Below, one piece after another: positions 2,477 to 62,012 of a stretch of 64,000 bases of DNA (the first letter of the stretch is position 1; each line of letters starts with the position of its first letter). Location: positions 32,001 to 96,000 of the IMG/VR virus record IMGVR_UViG_3300025121_000014; one strand, 5' to 3'. The notes below the pieces were generated by a model that did not search any database, was not told the DNA's origin, and was given only the letters and a program-made list of their open reading frames with translations. Made by a program: the position numbers and the translations under genes. This DNA is from a virus. Its lineage: Duplodnaviria; Caudoviricetes.

Positions 2477-3739
2477 TCAAAGAACTTTTTCTTTATTTTT
2501 TAATTTATAATATTGTGTATTTTCATATTTATCAACATATAATTTTGATTTGGCAATATTATATGCTGCATTATAATCAGAATCTATATTTTCATTGTGT
2601 ATTTTACACTTATCATTTTGACATATAAATGTATCCCCATTTCTTTCCCCTATTTCCCCACATATAGAACATATTTGACTAGTATGATAAGGATCGACAA
2701 ATTTCAAGTTTATTCCATAAGAATCTACTTTATATTTTAACTTGTCTATAAAATTAGAAATTGGCCAATATCTAGAAAAAAATGAATTCTTATCAATATT
2801 TCTATTTAATAATTCCATATTAATCTGTTCTACTTTATACTTTATACAAAAATCAATAACCTGTTTACTTAATTTATGTAAAGCAGTATTAGTAAAATTA
2901 ATTTCTTTTTTTCTGATAGTGTCTAAATATTTTAATTTTCTATTTCTACCGTGTCCACCTTTTGCCATAACCATAGATTTCTGGTATTCTCTTCTTTTCT
3001 TATTAATATCCATCTTTACACGGATTAAATCATCAGAATGAATTGATTTTTGTACATGTATATTATCATTTAATCTTATTGATACAAATCGTCTAACACC
3101 TAAATCGATGCCACATACTCTACCTTTTACTTTTTCGTAATCTTCAGATTCTGTTTCATATGTAAATATTATATAATAATGTTTGTCTCTTTTATTGTAT
3201 GTTACGTTAAAAACTCTATTAATATTTAGTGATTTATCATTTTTATCCATTAATCTTTCTAATAGTTTTTTGTTACCACTTTTATCTTTACCAAATAATA
3301 GTTTAAAATCTAATCCATTTTTTATTCTTAATATGATATCATCATTTACATTATGAAAATTTGGATTAATCCCACCACTATTAAATTGGTATATAATAGG
3401 TGCTCCATATTTATATAATCTAGGTGTTCGTTTACCTTTAAATAATCCGTTTTTTATGTCATTAGAAAAATCTTTCTTAACCCTATGACATATATTAGAT
3501 AATATAGCTGTTGGGAATGTTGGATGCAAATCTCTTACAGAGTGATATACTTTTGTTGTTTTTGCAGATTTTACTGGAATAATACTTTCTGACAATTTTT
3601 GTTTTATAAATACCCATTCGTGTGAATATGCATCATTATATATTTTATTTGTTTGATACATTAAATTATTTATATAATCAAATGTATTTTTATTTAATGG
3701 CACTATTCTTATTTTTACTGCGGATATGTATTTATTCAT
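2477..3739 (-). CDS. cas12f: Miniature type V CRISPR effector, Cas12f1-like (TnpB-derived RuvC nuclease), 420 aa
   Basis: RuvC-I GIDLG, RuvC-II INMELL, Zn finger TSQICSICG...CQNDKC and RuvC-III DSDYNAA. The segment AKGGHGRNRKLKYLDTIRKKEINF resembles AsCas12f1 ARGGHGRDKRIKPIEQLRDKIANF as recalled. Directly adjacent to the array. Confidence 0.85.
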   Translation of the reverse strand: MNKYISAVKIRIVPLNKNTFDYINNLMYQTNKIYNDAYSHEWVFIKQKLSESIIPVKSAKTTKVYHSVRDLHPTFPTAILSNICHRVKKDFSNDIKNGLFKGKRTPRLYKYGAPIIYQFNSGGINPNFHNVNDDIILRIKNGLDFKLLFGKDKSGNKKLLERLMDKNDKSLNINRVFNVTYNKRDKHYYIIFTYETESEDYEKVKGRVCGIDLGVRRFVSIRLNDNIHVQKSIHSDDLIRVKMDINKKRREYQKSMVMAKGGHGRNRKLKYLDTIRKKEINFTNTALHKLSKQVIDFCIKYKVEQINMELLNRNIDKNSFFSRYWPISNFIDKLKYKVDSYGINLKFVDPYHTSQICSICGEIGERNGDTFICQNDKCKIHNENIDSDYNAAYNIAKSKLYVDKYENTQYYKLKNKEKVL

Positions 3740-14467: not shown

Positions 14468-15763
14468 ACATCTTGTCAAAGAAAACCACCAAATCTTCAG
14501 TTTGGTGGATGAATTTGACTTCCAAAAACGGAAAAAACAGACTTTTAACTTTTAATATATAATTTAAAGGAAAAATAAAATATCTTTAAAAATGTTAAAA
14601 TCATATAAATACAGAATATACCCAAATCAAGCCCAAAAAGAACTTCTTTCAAAGATTTTTGGTCAAGTAAGATTTGTATATAATCTTGGTTTAGAAACTA
14701 AAATAACAGCATATACAGGAAACAAAAAAAATATTGATGTGTTTGATTTAAATAAGCAAATTAAAGAATTAAAAGATAATGAATGTGAATGGTTAAAAGA
14801 AAGCCCATCACAAGCACTTCAAATGAGTATGTCTAATCTAGATAATGCTTATACAAATTTCTTTAGAGGAAAAGGTTTTCCAAAATTTAAGAATAAATAT
14901 TCAAAACAATCATTTCAACTACCACAAGGTGTTTGGTTATCAGATAATAATAAACAAATTTTTATACCGAAATTAAAATTCACCGATATAGATTTACATC
15001 GTGAATTTAAAGGCGATATTAAAACTGTAACAGTAAGTAAATCAATAACTAATAAATATTATATATCAATTTTAACAGATAATTTACAACCTAAACCAGA
15101 AAAAAAACCAATTAAGTTAAATACAACAATTGGAATTGATTTAGGGATTAAAGATTTTGCTATCACTTCAGATGGAAAGAAATTCAAGAACCACGATTTC
15201 TTTAAATCTGCTTTAAGAGAACTAAGGGTTGAACAGCGATCTCTTAGTAGGAAAAAGAAAGGATCAAACCATTACAATCAACAAAAAATGAAAGTCGCTT
15301 TAATACACGAACACATTAAAAATCAAAGAGAAGATTATTTACATAAAATCAGTAAATATTTAGTTGATAATTATGACACTATATGTATTGAAAATCTTGG
15401 TGTATCTAATATGATTAAAAATCATAAATTATCTAAAGCAATATCAGATATGGGATGGAATAAATTTAAATCTATGCTTGATTATAAATGTGAATGGTAT
15501 GGTAAAAATTTAAGTGTGATTGGTAGATTTGATCCGTCAAGTAAATCATGTAGTTCTTGTGGGACAATAAATAAAGAATTAACATTAAAAGATAGAGAAT
15601 GGGTTTGTAAAGAGTGTGGTGTTAAACACGATAGGGATATTAATGCTGCAATAAATATAAGAAATTTTGGGTTGAGGAACCAACCTAGCGTCACACAAAG
15701 TGAATGGTTGCATTGTGCTTGTGGCGTAGAAACACACAAATCTTCAGTTTGTGTGTAGTTCAT
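14468..15763 (+). mobile_element. IS200/IS605-family TnpB-only (IS1341-like) element, 1296 bp
   Basis: Preceded by TTTAT (14463-14467). Left-end hairpin gtcaaagaaaaccaccaaatcttcagtttggtggatgaatttgac; right-end hairpin gaaacacacaaatcttcagtttgtgtgtagttcat. No tnpA. Confidence 0.85.
14592..15758 (+). CDS. tnpB: TnpB RNA-guided endonuclease
   Basis: N-terminal YKYRIYP HTH, GIDLG, ICIENL, CSSCG...CKECG and HDRDINAA. The stop codon lies inside the right-end hairpin. Confidence 0.95.
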   Translation: MLKSYKYRIYPNQAQKELLSKIFGQVRFVYNLGLETKITAYTGNKKNIDVFDLNKQIKELKDNECEWLKESPSQALQMSMSNLDNAYTNFFRGKGFPKFKNKYSKQSFQLPQGVWLSDNNKQIFIPKLKFTDIDLHREFKGDIKTVTVSKSITNKYYISILTDNLQPKPEKKPIKLNTTIGIDLGIKDFAITSDGKKFKNHDFFKSALRELRVEQRSLSRKKKGSNHYNQQKMKVALIHEHIKNQREDYLHKISKYLVDNYDTICIENLGVSNMIKNHKLSKAISDMGWNKFKSMLDYKCEWYGKNLSVIGRFDPSSKSCSSCGTINKELTLKDREWVCKECGVKHDRDINAAINIRNFGLRNQPSVTQSEWLHCACGVETHKSSVCV

Positions 15764-16308
15764 CTACTATAAGTAAAATTGTTAAAATAAAACAATATGG
15801 TTTAGATAAAAAATATATGCCATCAAAAGATGAAATTAAAAAAGAATTTGATAATTGGGGTAATAGTATACATAGTACAGATTTAAAAATTTATCATATA
15901 ATTATATTAGAATTACCATTTGATTTATTACCTATAAGAAAAGAACCGAGTAAATTAAAAACAATTTATAAAGGGAATAAAAATAAAATTATTTGTAGTA
16001 CAGAGTTAGATGTAAGTTATAAAAATATAACTAAATTGCCAGATAATTTAGTTATTTATGGTGATTTGAATTGTAGTAGTAATCAATTAACTGAATTACC
16101 AAAAGGATTAGAAGTATTTGGAAATTTAAAAGCAAGTTATAATAATTTAACCGAATTTCCAGATGATACAATAGTACACGGATATTTAGATATAACTGGT
16201 ACTAAAATAACTAAAATACCTAAAACAGCAGTAATTTGGGAAGCTATATATTCTGATTATAAGTTAAATTATTTTAACCCAAAATCTGATGAAGAACATA
16301 TATTATAG
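15764..16308 (+). CDS. 3' part of the IS-interrupted LRR protein
   Basis: STISKIVKIKQYGLDKKYMPS matches the helical module of neighbouring paralogues, and ITKLPDNLVIYGDL-type repeats follow. The annotated GTG at 15751 lies inside the IS end. Confidence 0.7.
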
Positions 16309-16311
16309 AAT

Positions 16312-17016
16312 ATGAAAACATTTAAACAATTTATTAATGAAAATGTAAAAGATTTACTAACAGGAAAATCTGATGATGTTATTAGTAAAGAATTAGATAA
16401 ATTAAAAATACAAGATAAATTAAGATATATTCAAAAATATGATTTATCTGATAAATTTATGCCATCTGATAAGGAAATTAAAAATTATTTAAATAAATTC
16501 AGCACATATCAAATTATTGATAAAATACATTATTTAAATTTACCTAAAAAATTTATGCCAACTGATGAAGAAATTAAAAAATTAAAACCTTCGAAATTAT
16601 TAGAATTTATATCAAGAGGATGTATTTCTAAAAAATTTGAACCTACAAAAAAAGATTTAAATACATTTATGGAAAATATACCTAATGATATTAAAAATAT
16701 ATTGCAAATATATATTGATGCTGACGATAATTATGAATCAACAGGATTTTTTTTAAATTTTATTGATCAATTTACTACTTGTAAAAATTATTATAAATAT
16801 ATAATAGATATTGTTAATACTCACATAGAAGATTATTCTGACCATGAACCTAATCCATATTCACATATTAAATCTGATCAAGAAAAACTAAATTTTATGG
16901 ATTCTGATTTACTAATAGAATTTGTTGGTAATGGTATTTTTTATATTGATAGTAACACATATAATCATTTTATAGAAGATTTGAAAAAAACTAGTTGGAA
17001 TGATATAGTGGAATAG
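16312..17016 (+). CDS. Hypothetical protein with CTS-like N-terminus (MKTFKQFINE-NVKDLLTGKS)
   Basis: 234 aa. This is the closest match to the T4 IPII/IPIII CTS MKTYQEFIAE. Confidence 0.8.
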   Translation: MKTFKQFINENVKDLLTGKSDDVISKELDKLKIQDKLRYIQKYDLSDKFMPSDKEIKNYLNKFSTYQIIDKIHYLNLPKKFMPTDEEIKKLKPSKLLEFISRGCISKKFEPTKKDLNTFMENIPNDIKNILQIYIDADDNYESTGFFLNFIDQFTTCKNYYKYIIDIVNTHIEDYSDHEPNPYSHIKSDQEKLNFMDSDLLIEFVGNGIFYIDSNTYNHFIEDLKKTSWNDIVE

Positions 17017-17053
17017 ATTTAACAAGTTAACGAAAATATTTATTAATTTTTTT

Positions 17054-17091
17054 AAAAATCTATTTTTAATATATATTAAAAATAGATTTTT
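17054..17091. repeat. Perfect 38-bp palindrome centred on a TTAATATATA motif
   Basis: aaaaatctatttttaatat|atattaaaaatagattttt. Confidence 0.9.
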
Positions 17092-22096: not shown

Positions 22097-23413
22097 ATGA
22101 GTAAAATGATTAAATTAGATAACAAAATAACAGAAGAAGAATTTATACAAAGTTTATCTGATAAAGAACTTATCATCTATGAAGATATCCAGGGATCGAA
22201 AGTTTACGTGAAGTTTGATGGAGATAGATTTATTATAAAACCACGAAGTTTTAAAAATGAAGAATTAAATTTTGTAGATTTAGCAGTACAACGCTATTAT
22301 AATATGATTTTCGCGTTCTTCCATTCACTTCCACGATATATTACAGATATTATAAATAGAAACTGGTGGTTCTGCTTTCAGTATCTTTACGATGAATCTG
22401 GAAGCCATACTAAATATAATAAAATACCTAAAAATAATTTAATATTAACATCAATAGTAAAAGGTAGTAAACATAAATTTAATTATGATGAAATAGTAGA
22501 ATATTCTAATTTATTTGATGTTGAACCATTACCTGTAATTTTTAAAGGTGAACTATTACCAAAACAATTAGAAGTTATTGCATTATTTTTAAAATCAAGT
22601 GTAGAAGATTTAAAATTTGTATTTGGTGATGATAATTTTGCAAAATTTTTCTATAATATTTTAAATGTTAAAATAGAAAATTCTTTTTTAATGGATAATA
22701 ATTTTAATGATAATTTAGAAAAAATTATTATTAGAATTGACGGTGATGATAGATTTTCATTTGAAATATTGAACCCGTTATTTAAGAAAAATTTAAGTGA
22801 TAATGCAACTGAATATGCACAAATATTTAGTTTAATTATTGTTAACTTTTTAGAATTTTTACAATTAAAAAATATTAAAAAATATAAACCAAAAGGATTA
22901 ACAAAAGATGAAATGTATATTAATTTAATATCTATAATTTTTAATGAATATATGGATAATATTAAAGATGATATTAAAGATTGGGAAATATCTATTCCTA
23001 AATTTATTAAAGATGATAAATTTAAATTAAATACAAATTTAATTAGAAATAAAATAACAAAAGAATATGTTCAATCTAGTGAAAAAATAGAATATCTTTT
23101 TAAAATAATTCTTGGAAATTTTAATAGGTATCGTAATGAGAATAAGATTATGGGTGTCTTTACAGAAAAAACTGTTGAATTACTTAACAAAAAAGTTGAA
23201 GAAATTAATAAATATTTAGAAGAACAACTTAAAATATACAGAGATTACCGCTTCCAACAGATTGATTTGCTGAACTTTAGGGATTACTTTGATTTAAAAT
23301 TTGATAAAGATGCTTCGGGAACCATATATCCAGATATTTCGGTCGAATTTGAAGATGAACAAGAAACTGAAACAAGTAAAAAGGGAAAGAAAGGTAAGTG
23401 GGAAAAAAAATGA
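22097..23413 (+). CDS. RNA-ligase (Rnl2-type nucleotidyltransferase)-fold protein, probably catalytically degenerate
   Basis: YEDIQGSK (motif I with Lys replaced by Asp), FCFQY, PLPVIFKG, LEKIIIR and FEILNPLF occur in ligase motif order. Confidence 0.5.
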   Translation: MSKMIKLDNKITEEEFIQSLSDKELIIYEDIQGSKVYVKFDGDRFIIKPRSFKNEELNFVDLAVQRYYNMIFAFFHSLPRYITDIINRNWWFCFQYLYDESGSHTKYNKIPKNNLILTSIVKGSKHKFNYDEIVEYSNLFDVEPLPVIFKGELLPKQLEVIALFLKSSVEDLKFVFGDDNFAKFFYNILNVKIENSFLMDNNFNDNLEKIIIRIDGDDRFSFEILNPLFKKNLSDNATEYAQIFSLIIVNFLEFLQLKNIKKYKPKGLTKDEMYINLISIIFNEYMDNIKDDIKDWEISIPKFIKDDKFKLNTNLIRNKITKEYVQSSEKIEYLFKIILGNFNRYRNENKIMGVFTEKTVELLNKKVEEINKYLEEQLKIYRDYRFQQIDLLNFRDYFDLKFDKDASGTIYPDISVEFEDEQETETSKKGKKGKWEKK

Positions 23414-23599
23414 TAATTTTAAAAATTATCTTTTAAGTTAATACCCCTTTTAATCAAATCATCTTTTATTAAATTTTCAATATATTTTGATTTAGTACTA
23501 TAATACCCATTTAGATAATATTAATGTATATACGATAGAAAACATTTGTAAATTAACAGATGAAGAAGAATTTATAAGTTATAAAAATTTTATTTAAAT

Positions 23600-23615
23600 T
23601 GTTCCACGTGGAACA
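23600..23615. promoter_or_regulatory. parS (ParB/Spo0J-binding) site
   Basis: TGTTCCACGTGGAACA inside a perfect 24-bp palindrome at 23596-23619. Confidence 0.8.
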
Positions 23616-23620
23616 ATTTT

Positions 23621-23650
23621 AAAAAGGTCAGTTCAATTCTGACCTTTTTT
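23621..23650. terminator. Intrinsic terminator, probably bidirectional
   Basis: aaaaaggtcag-ttcaatt-ctgacctttttt. Confidence 0.75.
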
Positions 23651-23702
23651 GTTTATGCTAATTTTAAATTTAATATATAGAAATAAATTTAAAATATTTT
23701 AA

Positions 23703-25100
23703 ATGTCAAATCAAACAATTAGGATAGCAGAGATACTTAAAAACCTTAATTTATCAAATGTAAATATACCATATGATTCATATTCTTTAACAAAGTTGAA
23801 ATTAAATACAACTACAACAACAAGAACTATAAAATATGGATTTTTAGGTGATGATATAACATTCTTATTATTAAAAATTACTTATGATGATCAAAATCCG
23901 TTTTCCATAATTGAAGAAAATCAAAATATAGAATATTGGTTTGAAGATGAACCAACAATAATAAGAAAAGCACATAAACTATTACTTTTTACAGGAAATT
24001 CAACACATAGAATTCCACAAATTTATTTAAAAAATACTAGTGGATTAAAAGTTGATATTGATATTTTAATGGCTAATTTATCACAATCAGATATAGATAT
24101 TTTAACATTCCCTAATAAAATTATTACATATTCAGGATTATATTATAATTCCATTCGTTCAAATACATATTGGAATGCAACCGCAAATGTTAGTGGATCG
24201 TCACAATTTGAAATATATGATTTAGATGATGTTAGATTATTATCATTACCTTATTTAGATTTACCAACATTCAATTTAAGTGGTAAAAAAATTACTATAA
24301 TATTAACAGGTACAACATATATTTTAGATTTTGTTAATGAATTTGAAATGTATCAAGCAAATAGTAGAATGTTATGGGTTATGGAAGAAGAATATATTAG
24401 ATATTTATCTAAAACTAATCCTACATTAGATATTATTGAACCTACATTTATTTTAAATAATAATATAACTCCATTAGATTTAACTGGTAATACATATATT
24501 TATCAATATATTACAGGAACTACAATAATTAAAGACGATATATTATTCCACTTTATAAGCGGAATTATAGATAATAGAGATGGTATTATAAATATAAGTG
24601 GATGTACTGTTGAAATTTATGATAGTAATATGGTTTCATTAACTGGCATTACAGAAAGTGGTGATTATAATATTATAATTTATATAAAAGATAATGCTAA
24701 TAATATCATATTAGTAAATTATATTTTAAAAGTAGGTGCATATGTTATTATTGTAGAAAACGAAACATATATATTACCTACTGAAAATACTGAATTAAGT
24801 GTTATATATAGTGGTAGTGAAAATACAACATCTAATTTAGTTATAAGTGGAACAACAATAATAATATCTAATTCTGGTGGTAGTTTTGTTTGGGATTTAG
24901 GTGGTATTGATCAACATATATTTACATATATCGGAGAAACTATAATAGTTACTATTTCTAGTATAAACTATACTATTACTTGGAATGGATATGGTAGTTT
25001 AGTATTTAATTTAAAAATGATTACTGACTGGTTATTGAGTTCTGGTTATTGGGATAGTTCTAAAATTTGGGATAGTGACGAATATTGGATTAGTGCTTAA
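23703..25100 (+). CDS. Putative virion structural protein, paralogue of 27847-29565
   Basis: Shares LLKITYD...KLLLxTGNSTxRxPQIYLxN...FEMYQAxSRxLW with 27847. C-terminal GYWDSSKIWDSDEYW. Confidence 0.7.
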   Translation: MSNQTIRIAEILKNLNLSNVNIPYDSYSLTKLKLNTTTTTRTIKYGFLGDDITFLLLKITYDDQNPFSIIEENQNIEYWFEDEPTIIRKAHKLLLFTGNSTHRIPQIYLKNTSGLKVDIDILMANLSQSDIDILTFPNKIITYSGLYYNSIRSNTYWNATANVSGSSQFEIYDLDDVRLLSLPYLDLPTFNLSGKKITIILTGTTYILDFVNEFEMYQANSRMLWVMEEEYIRYLSKTNPTLDIIEPTFILNNNITPLDLTGNTYIYQYITGTTIIKDDILFHFISGIIDNRDGIINISGCTVEIYDSNMVSLTGITESGDYNIIIYIKDNANNIILVNYILKVGAYVIIVENETYILPTENTELSVIYSGSENTTSNLVISGTTIIISNSGGSFVWDLGGIDQHIFTYIGETIIVTISSINYTITWNGYGSLVFNLKMITDWLLSSGYWDSSKIWDSDEYWISA

Positions 25101-30137: not shown

Positions 30138-30160
30138 CACCTATTTTGAAAAAATTTATA

Positions 30161-30194
30161 AAAAAGACTAATTTTAAAATTAGTCTTTTTTTTT
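30161..30194. terminator. Intrinsic terminator (perfect palindrome)
   Basis: aaaaagactaatttt|aaaattagtcttttt followed by additional T. Confidence 0.75.
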
Positions 30195-34964: not shown

Positions 34965-34997
34965 AAAAAAGGGAAGATTAATCTTCCCTTTTTTTTT
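34965..34997. terminator. Intrinsic terminator (perfect palindrome)
   Basis: aaaaaagggaagatt|aatcttccctttttt followed by T. Confidence 0.8.
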
Positions 34998-35046: not shown

Positions 35047-36144
35047 ATGAATGTTGCGATAACTTTTGGTGTAACAAACCCTAATTTTAGTGTTTGGAGT
35101 AGTGGTGCATTACAAAATGTATTTTTCTTATACATGATATTAAAAAATATTAAAGATATTAATGTTTATCTTGTTAATTTTGGTATTCCAATTGATGAAC
35201 TTAATGGAGATGAAATATTTAATATAAATGAATTCGAATTCACAAAATGGGATGATATTAAAAATAAAGTAGATTTATTTATAGAAGCAGGAATAAAAAT
35301 TAATGTAGAAATAACTAAAGAATTAAGGTTACGTGGAACTAAAATTGTTATGTATCGTATAGGAAATGCTTATATTTTAGATAATGAAGATATTCTTTTT
35401 AATCCATCTAATAACGAAATTTATAGTGATATTTATGATGAAATCTGGACATTACCACATCACGAAAAAACAAGTAAATTTTATTTAGAAGAAATTTATA
35501 AATGTCCTGTTAAAATATTACCTATGATATGGGATACATATTTCATCGATAAATATAATTTAAGTTTAAAAGAAAATGGTATGAATCCTTTTTTCAAATT
35601 TGAAGGATGGATAAAAAATAAAAAAAATATAACTATTTTTGAACCAAATATAAATGCAATTAAAACATCTATTTATCCAATGTTAATTGTAGAAAGGGCT
35701 TATAATAAAAGACCTGAATTATTTGGAAAAGTTAGAGTATTAAACTCTATGAAATATAATCAAAATAAAAAATTTGTTTCCTTAGTAAATAAATTAAATA
35801 TTAAAAGATATGGCATAGCCACATTTGAAGATAGATTTAATACACCATATATTTTATCTAAATATACTGATATTGTAGTTTCTACACAATGGGAAAATGA
35901 ATTAAATTATTTATATTTTGATGTTCTTTATAATAAATATCCATTAATTCATAATTCACCAAGAATTAAAAAAGCAGGATATTATTATAAAGATTTTGAT
36001 ATCGAAACAGCAAGTGACCAATTAATTAAATGCATTATAAAAGATGATAGTAAATTAAACGAAAGACGAACTAATAATTTATTAGAAGAATTCTCTATTT
36101 ATAATATTGAAAATATAACTGCTTATGAACTACTACTACACTAA
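35047..36144 (+). CDS. DUF2827-like (GT-B glycosyltransferase-like) protein
   Basis: IFEPNINAIK...YP, VVSTQWENELNYLYFDVLY...PLIHNS...GYYY. The last 5 codons come from the IS right end. Confidence 0.7.
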   Translation: MNVAITFGVTNPNFSVWSSGALQNVFFLYMILKNIKDINVYLVNFGIPIDELNGDEIFNINEFEFTKWDDIKNKVDLFIEAGIKINVEITKELRLRGTKIVMYRIGNAYILDNEDILFNPSNNEIYSDIYDEIWTLPHHEKTSKFYLEEIYKCPVKILPMIWDTYFIDKYNLSLKENGMNPFFKFEGWIKNKKNITIFEPNINAIKTSIYPMLIVERAYNKRPELFGKVRVLNSMKYNQNKKFVSLVNKLNIKRYGIATFEDRFNTPYILSKYTDIVVSTQWENELNYLYFDVLYNKYPLIHNSPRIKKAGYYYKDFDIETASDQLIKCIIKDDSKLNERRTNNLLEEFSIYNIENITAYELLLH

Positions 36145-37508
36145 AGATGTAGTAGTTTCTGGAACATAATGTTCCTTCTCTTTAAGCGTTTCACAGATTA
36201 CGCCAGATTTCTCTAGTCTTATTTGGTCTCCGCGCTCGTAATCAGTCGTTCCAACTGATATATTTATTCTATATCCTTCGTTGAGAATATTAGTTGCTGC
36301 GTTAAAATCTCTATCGTGTTTTTCACCACATTTGGAACAAATCCAATATCTATCTTTGATTGTTAAATTATTGTTTATCCAACCACATTTAGAACAGGTT
36401 TTAGATGAAGGAAAGAACCTATCTATATGAACTACAGATTTATCATTCCATAATGATTTGTAATCTAAAACTTGAACGAATGTTCCCCAACTAACATCAC
36501 TAATTGCTTTTGATAGTTTATGATTTTTCATCATTCCTTTTATATTTAAGTCCTCCAAGTAAATTGTATCAAATTGTTTGATTAAATTAATGGTTGTTTT
36601 TTGTATTAAATCCATTCGTGAGTTAGTAATTTTTTCGTGTATTCTTGCTATTTTAATTCTTTGTTTTTCATAACGAACTGATTTAATGGTCTTTCGTGAT
36701 AGATATTGTTGATTTAATTTTAAAATCCTTTCGTAATGTTTTAGAAATCTATGGTTCTTGATTTTCGTTCCATTAGACAACACTAAAAAATCTTTTATTC
36801 CTAAATCTATTCCTACTGATAATCCTGTTTTATTAACTGAATTGTATTCCATTTCAGTTAAAATCGAAACAAAGTATTTTCCAGTAGGTTTTTTTAATAT
36901 AGAACAATGTTTGATTGTTCCTTTTATTTTTCTTTCCATTATCATTTCAATACCATTTCTAAACTTTGGTATGATTAGTTTATCTTTCTTTACTGAAACA
37001 AATTGGGGTATAGTAAATGAATTTTTCGATTTCCTTGATTTAAACTTTGGAAATTGTGTTCTTTTTTTAAAAAAACCATCATAAGCAGTATCTAAACAAT
37101 TTAAAGAAAATTGAAGTGTCTGTGAGTTTATTTCCTTCAACCATTTCTTATCATCGATTTTTTTTAATTGTGTTAGTTCTTTTGATTGGTCATAATAATT
37201 TAAAGTTTTCTTATTGTTTAAATATTCATCTTTTCTTTGATTTAAAAAATAATTATATACGAACCTCACTGAACCAAAGTGTTTATTCAATAACACTTGC
37301 TGTTCTTGTGTTGGTTCTAATCTAAACTTATATGTATATTTAATTGTTTTCATCTGTTTTTATGTTAAATTTTATTCTAACATAACTATATATAATTAAA
37401 AATATATTACTTTTTTCCATTTTTAAAAATGGTTTAAAATAATTAAAGAGTTAGGTGTCAAATTCATCCATTAAACTGAAGATTTAACGGTTTTCTTTGA
37501 CAGATTAA
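36125..37508 (-). mobile_element. IS200/IS605-family TnpB-only element, 1384 bp
   Basis: TTTAT target at 37509-37513 (minus strand). Left end gtcaaagaaaaccgttaaatcttcagtttaatggatgaatttgac; right end gaaactactacatctttagtgtagtagtagttcat. Confidence 0.85.
36136..37353 (-). CDS. tnpB: TnpB RNA-guided endonuclease
   Basis: YTYKFRLEP, GIDLG, IYLEDL, CSKCG...CSKCG and HDRDFNAA. Confidence 0.95.
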   Translation of the reverse strand: MKTIKYTYKFRLEPTQEQQVLLNKHFGSVRFVYNYFLNQRKDEYLNNKKTLNYYDQSKELTQLKKIDDKKWLKEINSQTLQFSLNCLDTAYDGFFKKRTQFPKFKSRKSKNSFTIPQFVSVKKDKLIIPKFRNGIEMIMERKIKGTIKHCSILKKPTGKYFVSILTEMEYNSVNKTGLSVGIDLGIKDFLVLSNGTKIKNHRFLKHYERILKLNQQYLSRKTIKSVRYEKQRIKIARIHEKITNSRMDLIQKTTINLIKQFDTIYLEDLNIKGMMKNHKLSKAISDVSWGTFVQVLDYKSLWNDKSVVHIDRFFPSSKTCSKCGWINNNLTIKDRYWICSKCGEKHDRDFNAATNILNEGYRINISVGTTDYERGDQIRLEKSGVICETLKEKEHYVPETTTSLV

Positions 37509-40581: not shown

Positions 40582-41160
40582 ATGGCTAAGAAAACCTATC
40601 CTATAATACATTTAAAAGATTTGTCAGATACACCTTCACCTACACCACCAGTAGGTTATGTATTTATTTATAGTAAATCAGATAATAGATTATATTTAAA
40701 AGATTCTGATGGTATAGAATCATTAGTTAGTGGTAGTATACAAAGTGCTTTAGATAGCGAAATGTCTGGGCTAATTGATAATGATATTATTAGATTTGAT
40801 GCCACTTTACAAAAATTTGTTAATGTTGCAGCATCTGAATATGATGGTTTATTAAGAATATCTGATACTAATATTTCAAGTGATAAACAATTAACAATTA
40901 TTATTCCTGCTGGTTATGTAATTGATGAATGTATTATTGTAGAAACATCTGGTTATACTGCGGGTAATATTTCTTTAGGTACATCAGTTGGAACAACTGA
41001 AATAATAAATAATTATACTATTAATGCTAATGATGATAAAATTGTACCAATAGGACAACAATATTTTAGTAGTGTAAATACTACAAATTTATATATTAGT
41101 AGCACTGCCTGGGGAGATGGTATTATTAATATTTATTTGTTAATAAAAAAGATACTATAA
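40582..41160 (+). CDS. Small virion protein made of cassettes shared with fibre genes
   Basis: C-terminal half (KFVNVAASEYD...AGNISLG...PIGQxYFS...LYISS..WG.G.INIYLL) is nearly identical to the C-terminus of 50611. Confidence 0.75.
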   Translation: MAKKTYPIIHLKDLSDTPSPTPPVGYVFIYSKSDNRLYLKDSDGIESLVSGSIQSALDSEMSGLIDNDIIRFDATLQKFVNVAASEYDGLLRISDTNISSDKQLTIIIPAGYVIDECIIVETSGYTAGNISLGTSVGTTEIINNYTINANDDKIVPIGQQYFSSVNTTNLYISSTAWGDGIINIYLLIKKIL

Positions 41161-61055: not shown

Positions 61056-62012
61056 ATGATACCTGCTCCAATAAGTAATTTTCAGAATTTTAACTAGTAT
61101 AGATTAGCAGCATCAATAGACGACGGAGATGAATATAATGGTCTTTATTATGATGGAACTTATATTTATATAGCAAGATCAGTAACTGGTTTATCAGTTT
61201 ATAGTTTTAATGGGACTGGTTTAACTTTATTAGATACAGATGATGATAGTGCAGGTGTTGATTTTAACGGGGTTACTGGATATGGTAGTTATATTTTTGT
61301 TACAAGTTCAAATTTTCCTAATGCTGCAAAATATAATGGGTTATATGCTTATTCTTTTAACGGAACTACATTAACAAAAATAACAGAAATAACACAAAGT
61401 CAAGGTGGTGATGATACTTATGGTGATGTAAATACTGATGGTACTTATATATATGTTAGTAGATTATATAAAGGTTTTGATGCATACTCTTTTAATGGTT
61501 CAACATTTACATATAAAGATAACAATCAAACCTATTTATCTTTAAACGGAGATGTTTTATGTAGTGGTGGTTATATTTATGTTACAGGAACTAATGGGAT
61601 ATCAGCATTTTCTTTTAATGGAACTACAATTTCAGGAATAACAACAATAGAAAATTATACATTAGCAGATAGATATGTAACATCTTATAGTGATGGAACT
61701 TATATTTATGTTGGTGGATATCTTGATGGATTATTTGTATATACATTTGATGGAACTGGTTTTACATATATTACTGAAAATAAACAAGGATCAAGTGTTA
61801 GTTATAGTGGTGTATATGATGATGGAACTTATATTTATGTCGGTGATTCTATAGGCACTGATACAATTAAAAGATATAGTTTTAATGGAACGACTTTAAC
61901 TTATGTAGATGCTTTAACAAATCCAGGTGGAACTTATTCGTTTTTAATATATGATAATTATATATATGTTAGTGCAAGTTTTACAGGACTTAAAGTATGG
62001 AAAATATTTTAA
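61056..62012 (+). CDS. Beta-propeller (DGTYIYV/YSFNGT repeat, LVIVD-like) protein with an in-frame TAG at codon 14 (missed by the ORF track)
   Basis: ATG in a typical A-rich context, TAG at 61095-61097, then about 300 open codons with roughly 7 repeats, ending TAA 62010-62012. Confidence 0.75.

Follow-up and report, generated by a model that had tools for sequence, protein, structure and literature searches.

Exact chromosomal-type parS sites in an AT-rich huge phage suggest possible recruitment of host ParB

The window, by which we mean the whole stretch of viral DNA that was analysed (64,000 nt, GC content 19–34%), contains a gap of 289 nt between two open reading frames (ORFs) on the plus strand, and within this gap lies the perfect 24-bp palindrome that the original prediction had described as intergenic and as a neighbour of a terminator. 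The palindrome, referred to here as site B, was found together with an intrinsic terminator that begins 1 nt past its end, and all three parts of that description held. The features of the region are the following:

22097–23413, plus strand: upstream gene, 438 aa, with 920 homologues and no Pfam or PHROG match
23596–23619, no strand assigned: site B, perfect 24-bp palindrome, AAATTGTTCCACGTGGAACAATTT
23600–23615, no strand assigned: 16-bp parS core of site B, exact match, TGTTCCACGTGGAACA
23621–23649, plus strand: intrinsic terminator that ends the upstream transcription unit and is made up of an A-tract, an 11-bp stem, a 7-nt loop and a T-tract
23703–25100, plus strand: downstream gene, 465 aa, without family match, starting about 50 nt past the terminator
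17054–17091: perfect palindrome with A-tract, stem and T-tract (30–38 bp, as are the next two)
30160–30191: perfect palindrome of the same build
34965–34994: perfect palindrome of the same build
2477–3739, minus strand: TnpB gene (IS605 OrfB/Cas12f-like, as are the next three)
14592–15758, plus strand: TnpB gene
36136–37353, minus strand: TnpB gene
L252 791–1981, minus strand: TnpB gene, bringing the number to at least four in about 83 kb
−13708 to −13693 in window coordinates (L260 2836–2851), outside the window: site A, second exact copy of the core

AAAT/ATTT flanks extend the core of site B to 24 bp, an extension that is specific to this site. With up to three mismatches allowed, site B was the sole match in the 64-kb window (shuffle mean 0.07), and an Rfam search of 23300–23800 returned nothing near threshold. 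Reading TAG as a sense codon left the gap and its flanking ORFs unchanged. As to the predicted location at a junction of accessory and structural modules, PHROG virion and tail-spike matches are present among the window ORFs, and the immediate neighbours are a gene that looks RNA-ligase-like upstream and two genes without family match downstream.

The carrier is a huge, AT-rich phage from groundwater that belongs with the Mahaphage/Lak-like phages. Its only named DNA relatives are 634–735 kb genomes deposited as 'uncultured phage' (LR745206, LR756501-4), which are the largest in the Mahaphage clade and are predicted to replicate in Bacteroidetes (PMC7162821). The host is probably a member of the Bacteroidota, going by this clade membership alone. 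The 438-aa protein encoded upstream of site B is a core gene product of the megaphage clade, with 44–54% identity to its counterparts in four of the 634–735 kb genomes. Features in a protein atlas (RNA_ligase clusters) provide a lead that it is possibly an Rnl2-type RNA ligase; in one relative the neighbour of its gene (L264 11313–11903) is 2H-phosphoesterase/Acb1-like, and the RNA ligase-like and 2H-phosphoesterase/Acb1-like neighbours hint at an RNA-repair module. No relatives of the two flanking proteins were found in scans of viral contigs, and none of the 465-aa downstream protein in metagenome contigs. In one groundwater assembly the downstream gene is split into ORFs of 234 aa and 156 aa (L126 4598–5973), and in another it is called as a single ORF of 465 aa (L127 4598–5995). 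Besides the three TnpB genes, the window ORFs include homing endonucleases, a patatin and an amidase. Two frames (61056–62012 and 15700–17022) are open only with TAG as a sense codon, TAG ends only four of 39 long frames, and the window has no tRNA; the phage may recode TAG in part, in the manner of Lak-type phages. L252 2121–5810 encodes a 1229-aa Mre11-Rad50-like fusion (Metallophos, SMC_N and AAA_23), which in a variant contig (L256 4318–7933) is split into products of 977 aa and 86 aa.

The core of site B is a 16-bp palindrome that fits the parS consensus TGTTNCACGTGNAACA at 16 of 16 positions, and it is likewise identical at all 16 positions to parS2/parS3 of Pseudomonas aeruginosa, which are validated chromosomal sites (PMC4368675). 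The original prediction of a match to the ParB/Spo0J parS consensus was thus accurate. Proper chromosome segregation in P. aeruginosa requires one parS of its origin-proximal cluster of four, and one is enough (PMC4368675). In a collection of species genomes, the exact 16-mer was found across many bacterial phyla, often in two to five copies within a few kb, and the genomes of Flavobacterium soli and Chitinophaga solisilvae carry it between ybeY and gidA/mnmG, the locus at which the Bacteroidota equivalents cluster (seen at L167 6699–6863 and L197 5778–6181). The further claim, that Bacteroidota commonly have the CC/GG form, finds only weak backing: this exact form is present, but in 13 of 201 sampled genomes (about 6%; reversed control 0), and it is in the minority to the TT/AA form, which is dominant in this phylum. 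The pattern TGTTYCACGTGRAACA was present in 73 of 101 sampled Bacteroidota genomes (reversed control 0), and CC/GG and TT/AA forms occur mixed inside single clusters. Many Bacteroidota genomes carry a pair of parS sites about 1.9 kb apart, which is approximately the length of gidA. A parB gene beside parS was not found in Bacteroidota, where parB is far off or on another contig. Given the identity with the P. aeruginosa sites and the ybeY–gidA clusters of Bacteroidota, the 16-mer is, by its sequence, a bona fide chromosomal-type parS. The phage sites differ from the chromosomal ones in that the latter are found close to oriC on a replicon that also carries parAB, whereas no parAB was seen in the phage DNA inspected.

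Walking upstream through identical groundwater contigs extended the phage DNA to 83,116 nt (stitched) and led to site A, which is located 37,308 bp upstream of site B, between two small genes of the same orientation that are 47 nt apart. The flanks of site A are unlike those of site B, and both the extended palindrome and a T-tract are missing there. Two further exact copies of the 16-mer, both intergenic, were found on G206, a related but distinct 84-kb phage contig (22.6% GC) from the same kind of sample, whose similarity to this phage does not go beyond the level of paralogues. One of these follows an intrinsic terminator at a distance of 1 nt and is placed beside an Hc1 histone-like gene, the other in a gap of about 30 nt between two genes, and both are without extended palindrome and T-tract. 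The common part of sites A and B and the two G206 sites is the 16-bp core alone, and all four are intergenic; because the four sites share nothing beyond the core, the core and not the hairpin is the conserved unit. By calculation, about 1e-6 exact copies are expected by chance in 83 kb at 22% GC, compared to the two seen. Two exact copies in 83 kb of such DNA and two more in G206, all intergenic, support the view that the parS core is under selection in this phage.

A possible variant without a G206 site (L272) was set aside, as its left end is GC-rich and likely a chimeric join. The Hc1 histone-H1-like gene (L007 61–247, G206 40860–41045) is situated directly upstream of the terminator and the parS site, and a thioredoxin gene is convergent with it. 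An origin of the sites as the end of a mobile element (IS200/605 hairpin) was rejected, since sites A and B show no flank similarity and the TnpB genes are far off. Scanning metagenomes for the AT-flanked 16-mer returned G206 again, together with AT-rich contigs without similarity to this phage; among AT-rich metagenome contigs, L315 (10993–12462) and L303 show ten exact parS copies, those of L315 being placed within about 1.5 kb and inside a longer repeated unit. The exact 24-mer occurs in IMG/VR in just two unrelated contigs with a GC content of 43–51% (L273 6332–6355 and L274 1317–1340), where the extended palindrome may reflect a flank preference or chance.

Across IMG/VR, the 16-mer was present in at least 120 viral contigs, compared to three for the reversed control, which is an excess of at least 40-fold. 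These sites have diverse flanks and GC contents, and viral parS sites fall in non-coding DNA about three times as often as random positions do. ParB_N was encoded in two of 50 parS-bearing records, and in none of the seven among them that were at least 90% complete.

Taken alone, site B resembles the perfect palindromic terminators of the phage and could pass for a weak one, and the site might be a hairpin acting in RNA or DNA, whether as the leading member of a tandem pair of terminators or as the operator of an unrelated phage regulator, with a coincidental match to parS. In favour of this, the perfect 24-bp palindrome with its AAA/TTTT flanks looks like the three other perfect palindromes listed above, which are likely bidirectional terminators and a house style of this phage; moreover, the hairpin of site B folds as RNA at −10.6 kcal/mol (z = −4.6) and abuts a genuine terminator (−13.4 kcal/mol). 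However, a terminator scan of 23300–23800 gave the one at 23621–23649 as its sole call and passed over the palindrome, because only four T precede an A-run. The build of an intrinsic terminator, a GC-containing stem-loop with a T-tract directly behind it, was not recognised by the scan at site B, and site A and the G206 sites have no T-tract. An arbitrary stem would equal parS exactly in an estimated 1 in 65,000 cases per palindrome, less at this GC content, and this would be needed four times. The original prediction had named an explanation as part of a terminator hairpin as the result that would speak against it; the check did not bear this out, as site A lacks both the extended palindrome and the T-tract, and we regard a coincidental hairpin as very improbable. 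A different possibility is that the sites belong to a complete partition or ParB-clamp system of the phage, with a ParB-fold protein encoded elsewhere in the huge genome and the host ParB uninvolved. The DNA read amounts to about 83 kb of such a genome, and ParB-fold proteins do occur in some phages, as the two ParB_N-encoding records among the 50 parS-bearing viral contigs illustrate. Against this, neither ParB_N nor ParA was found among the 51 window ORFs with Pfam and/or PHROGs, in agreement with the earlier claim that the window holds no parA or parB, and the genes next to site B have no ParA or ParB domain that would indicate a parA–parB cassette. The wider search for a phage ParB that had been proposed along with that claim likewise found neither ParB_N nor ParA in the upstream extension (precomputed Pfam calls), in G206 or in the four complete 634–735 kb relatives. 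We consider a ParB system of the phage's own unlikely.

The 16-mers could also be a non-functional relic or neutral passenger that arose by recombination with the host or by chance drift, an explanation that draws on their distribution among relatives. Conservation in related phages had been proposed as a check, and here the expectation failed: the four complete relatives contain no copy at up to two mismatches, a threshold loose enough to pick up the TT/AA form as well, except for one non-palindromic site with one mismatch in LR756502. No site is present downstream of the orthologous upstream gene in these four genomes, nor, in two relatives with 66–67% identity, within 10 kb of that gene, and in the closest relative, P0002 (84% identity), the next gene overlaps and leaves no gap. 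Copies of the region are present in Rifle-type groundwater assemblies (L126–L128), but they are 100% identical and therefore give no conservation signal. The site is lineage-specific, being missing from the four complete relatives and the two closer ones. This absence from every relative inspected, together with the lack of a cognate protein gene nearby, is what a relic would leave behind. On the other hand, the flanks are AT-rich like the phage and without host-like sequence, four intact 16-mers of 50% GC have been kept in DNA of 22% GC, all of them intergenic, and the 16-mer is strongly in excess over its control in viral contigs at large. In our judgement a relic or passenger is quite improbable, slightly more so than a partition system encoded by the phage itself.

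The reading we prefer, with a probability of roughly 0.6, is that the sites are orphan host-type parS sites that would load the ParB of the host. Exact parS copies, together with the lack of a ParB gene in the DNA inspected, suggest that the phage most likely borrows the host protein, and the interpretation given with the original prediction finds partial support. That the binder is ParB, that this is the host's own ParB, and all consequences downstream of binding are what we infer from these observations. On chromosomes, ParB binds to parS, closes into a clamp with CTP and then slides along the DNA; ParA moves the resulting complex, which can also load SMC. After entry of the phage DNA, host ParB dimers would accordingly be expected to recognise the 16-bp core, close as CTP-dependent clamps and slide onto flanking phage DNA, giving rise to a partition complex. 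The ParA system of the host, and possibly condensin, could then serve to position the very large phage genome, to segregate it or to organise it, for instance in a carrier or pseudolysogenic state. A phage replicating to many copies could, moreover, draw ParB away from the origin of the host by titration. The link from parS to condensin is itself unsettled in Bacteroides (PMC10197239).

The closest known parallel is provided by phi29 and Nf, two virulent phages of Bacillus (Meijer et al. 2005, as summarised in PMC2731898), which also carry several host-type parS sites on the phage genome. In phi29 there are five, and host Spo0J is used to enter the prespore (PMC2731898). The binder in these phages is host Spo0J/ParB and the segregation machinery of the host is exploited, whereas in the phage described here ParB binding is a prediction. 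The two cases differ in several further respects: phi29 has a protein-primed genome of 19 kb, a spore-forming host and entrapment in the prespore, whereas here a huge phage (relatives of 616–735 kb) carries two perfect-consensus sites 37 kb apart and its host is probably a non-sporulating member of the Bacteroidota. The hallmark of the phi29 type, host-type parS without a ParB of the phage's own, was seen within the 83 kb read, and no ParB was found in the relatives, of which the four complete ones lack the site. Bacteroidetes do not sporulate, and since they are the predicted hosts, a phi29-like outcome would have to differ here. The ParABS systems of P1, N15 and actinobacteriophages encode their own ParA and ParB beside family-specific parS repeats. 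They resemble the present case in having a cis-acting centromere on a phage genome, which in their case serves episomal inheritance, but differ from it in that no cassette is present here and the site is the chromosomal consensus of the host.

The placement of the two sites faintly recalls that of origin-proximal parS, since the cumulative GC-skew minimum, at about −5 to +12 kb, falls between sites A and B. The support from skew is weak, because skew tracks gene strand in this region and no such pattern was found around the sites of G206. A broader proposal would be that genome-sized phages copy the layout of bacterial chromosomes, with host centromeres flanking the origin and host ParB, plus any condensin that it loads, folding, resolving and partitioning the genome, and that orphan host parS sites are a widespread, unrecognised phage strategy. 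We put this forward tentatively and consider it rather doubtful.

The principle of a phage using host-type parS is already known from phi29, and the locus alone would be one more instance of it, recognised here from sequence. The IMG/VR count, with the 16-mer in excess and nearly all checked contigs without ParB, points to a general phenomenon. If host ParB loads on the sites, the chromosome-segregation machinery of a non-sporulating host would be at work for a giant phage that is presumably lytic, which would extend the phi29 principle far beyond Bacillus and would provide a concrete handle on how megaphages persist or organise themselves in cells.
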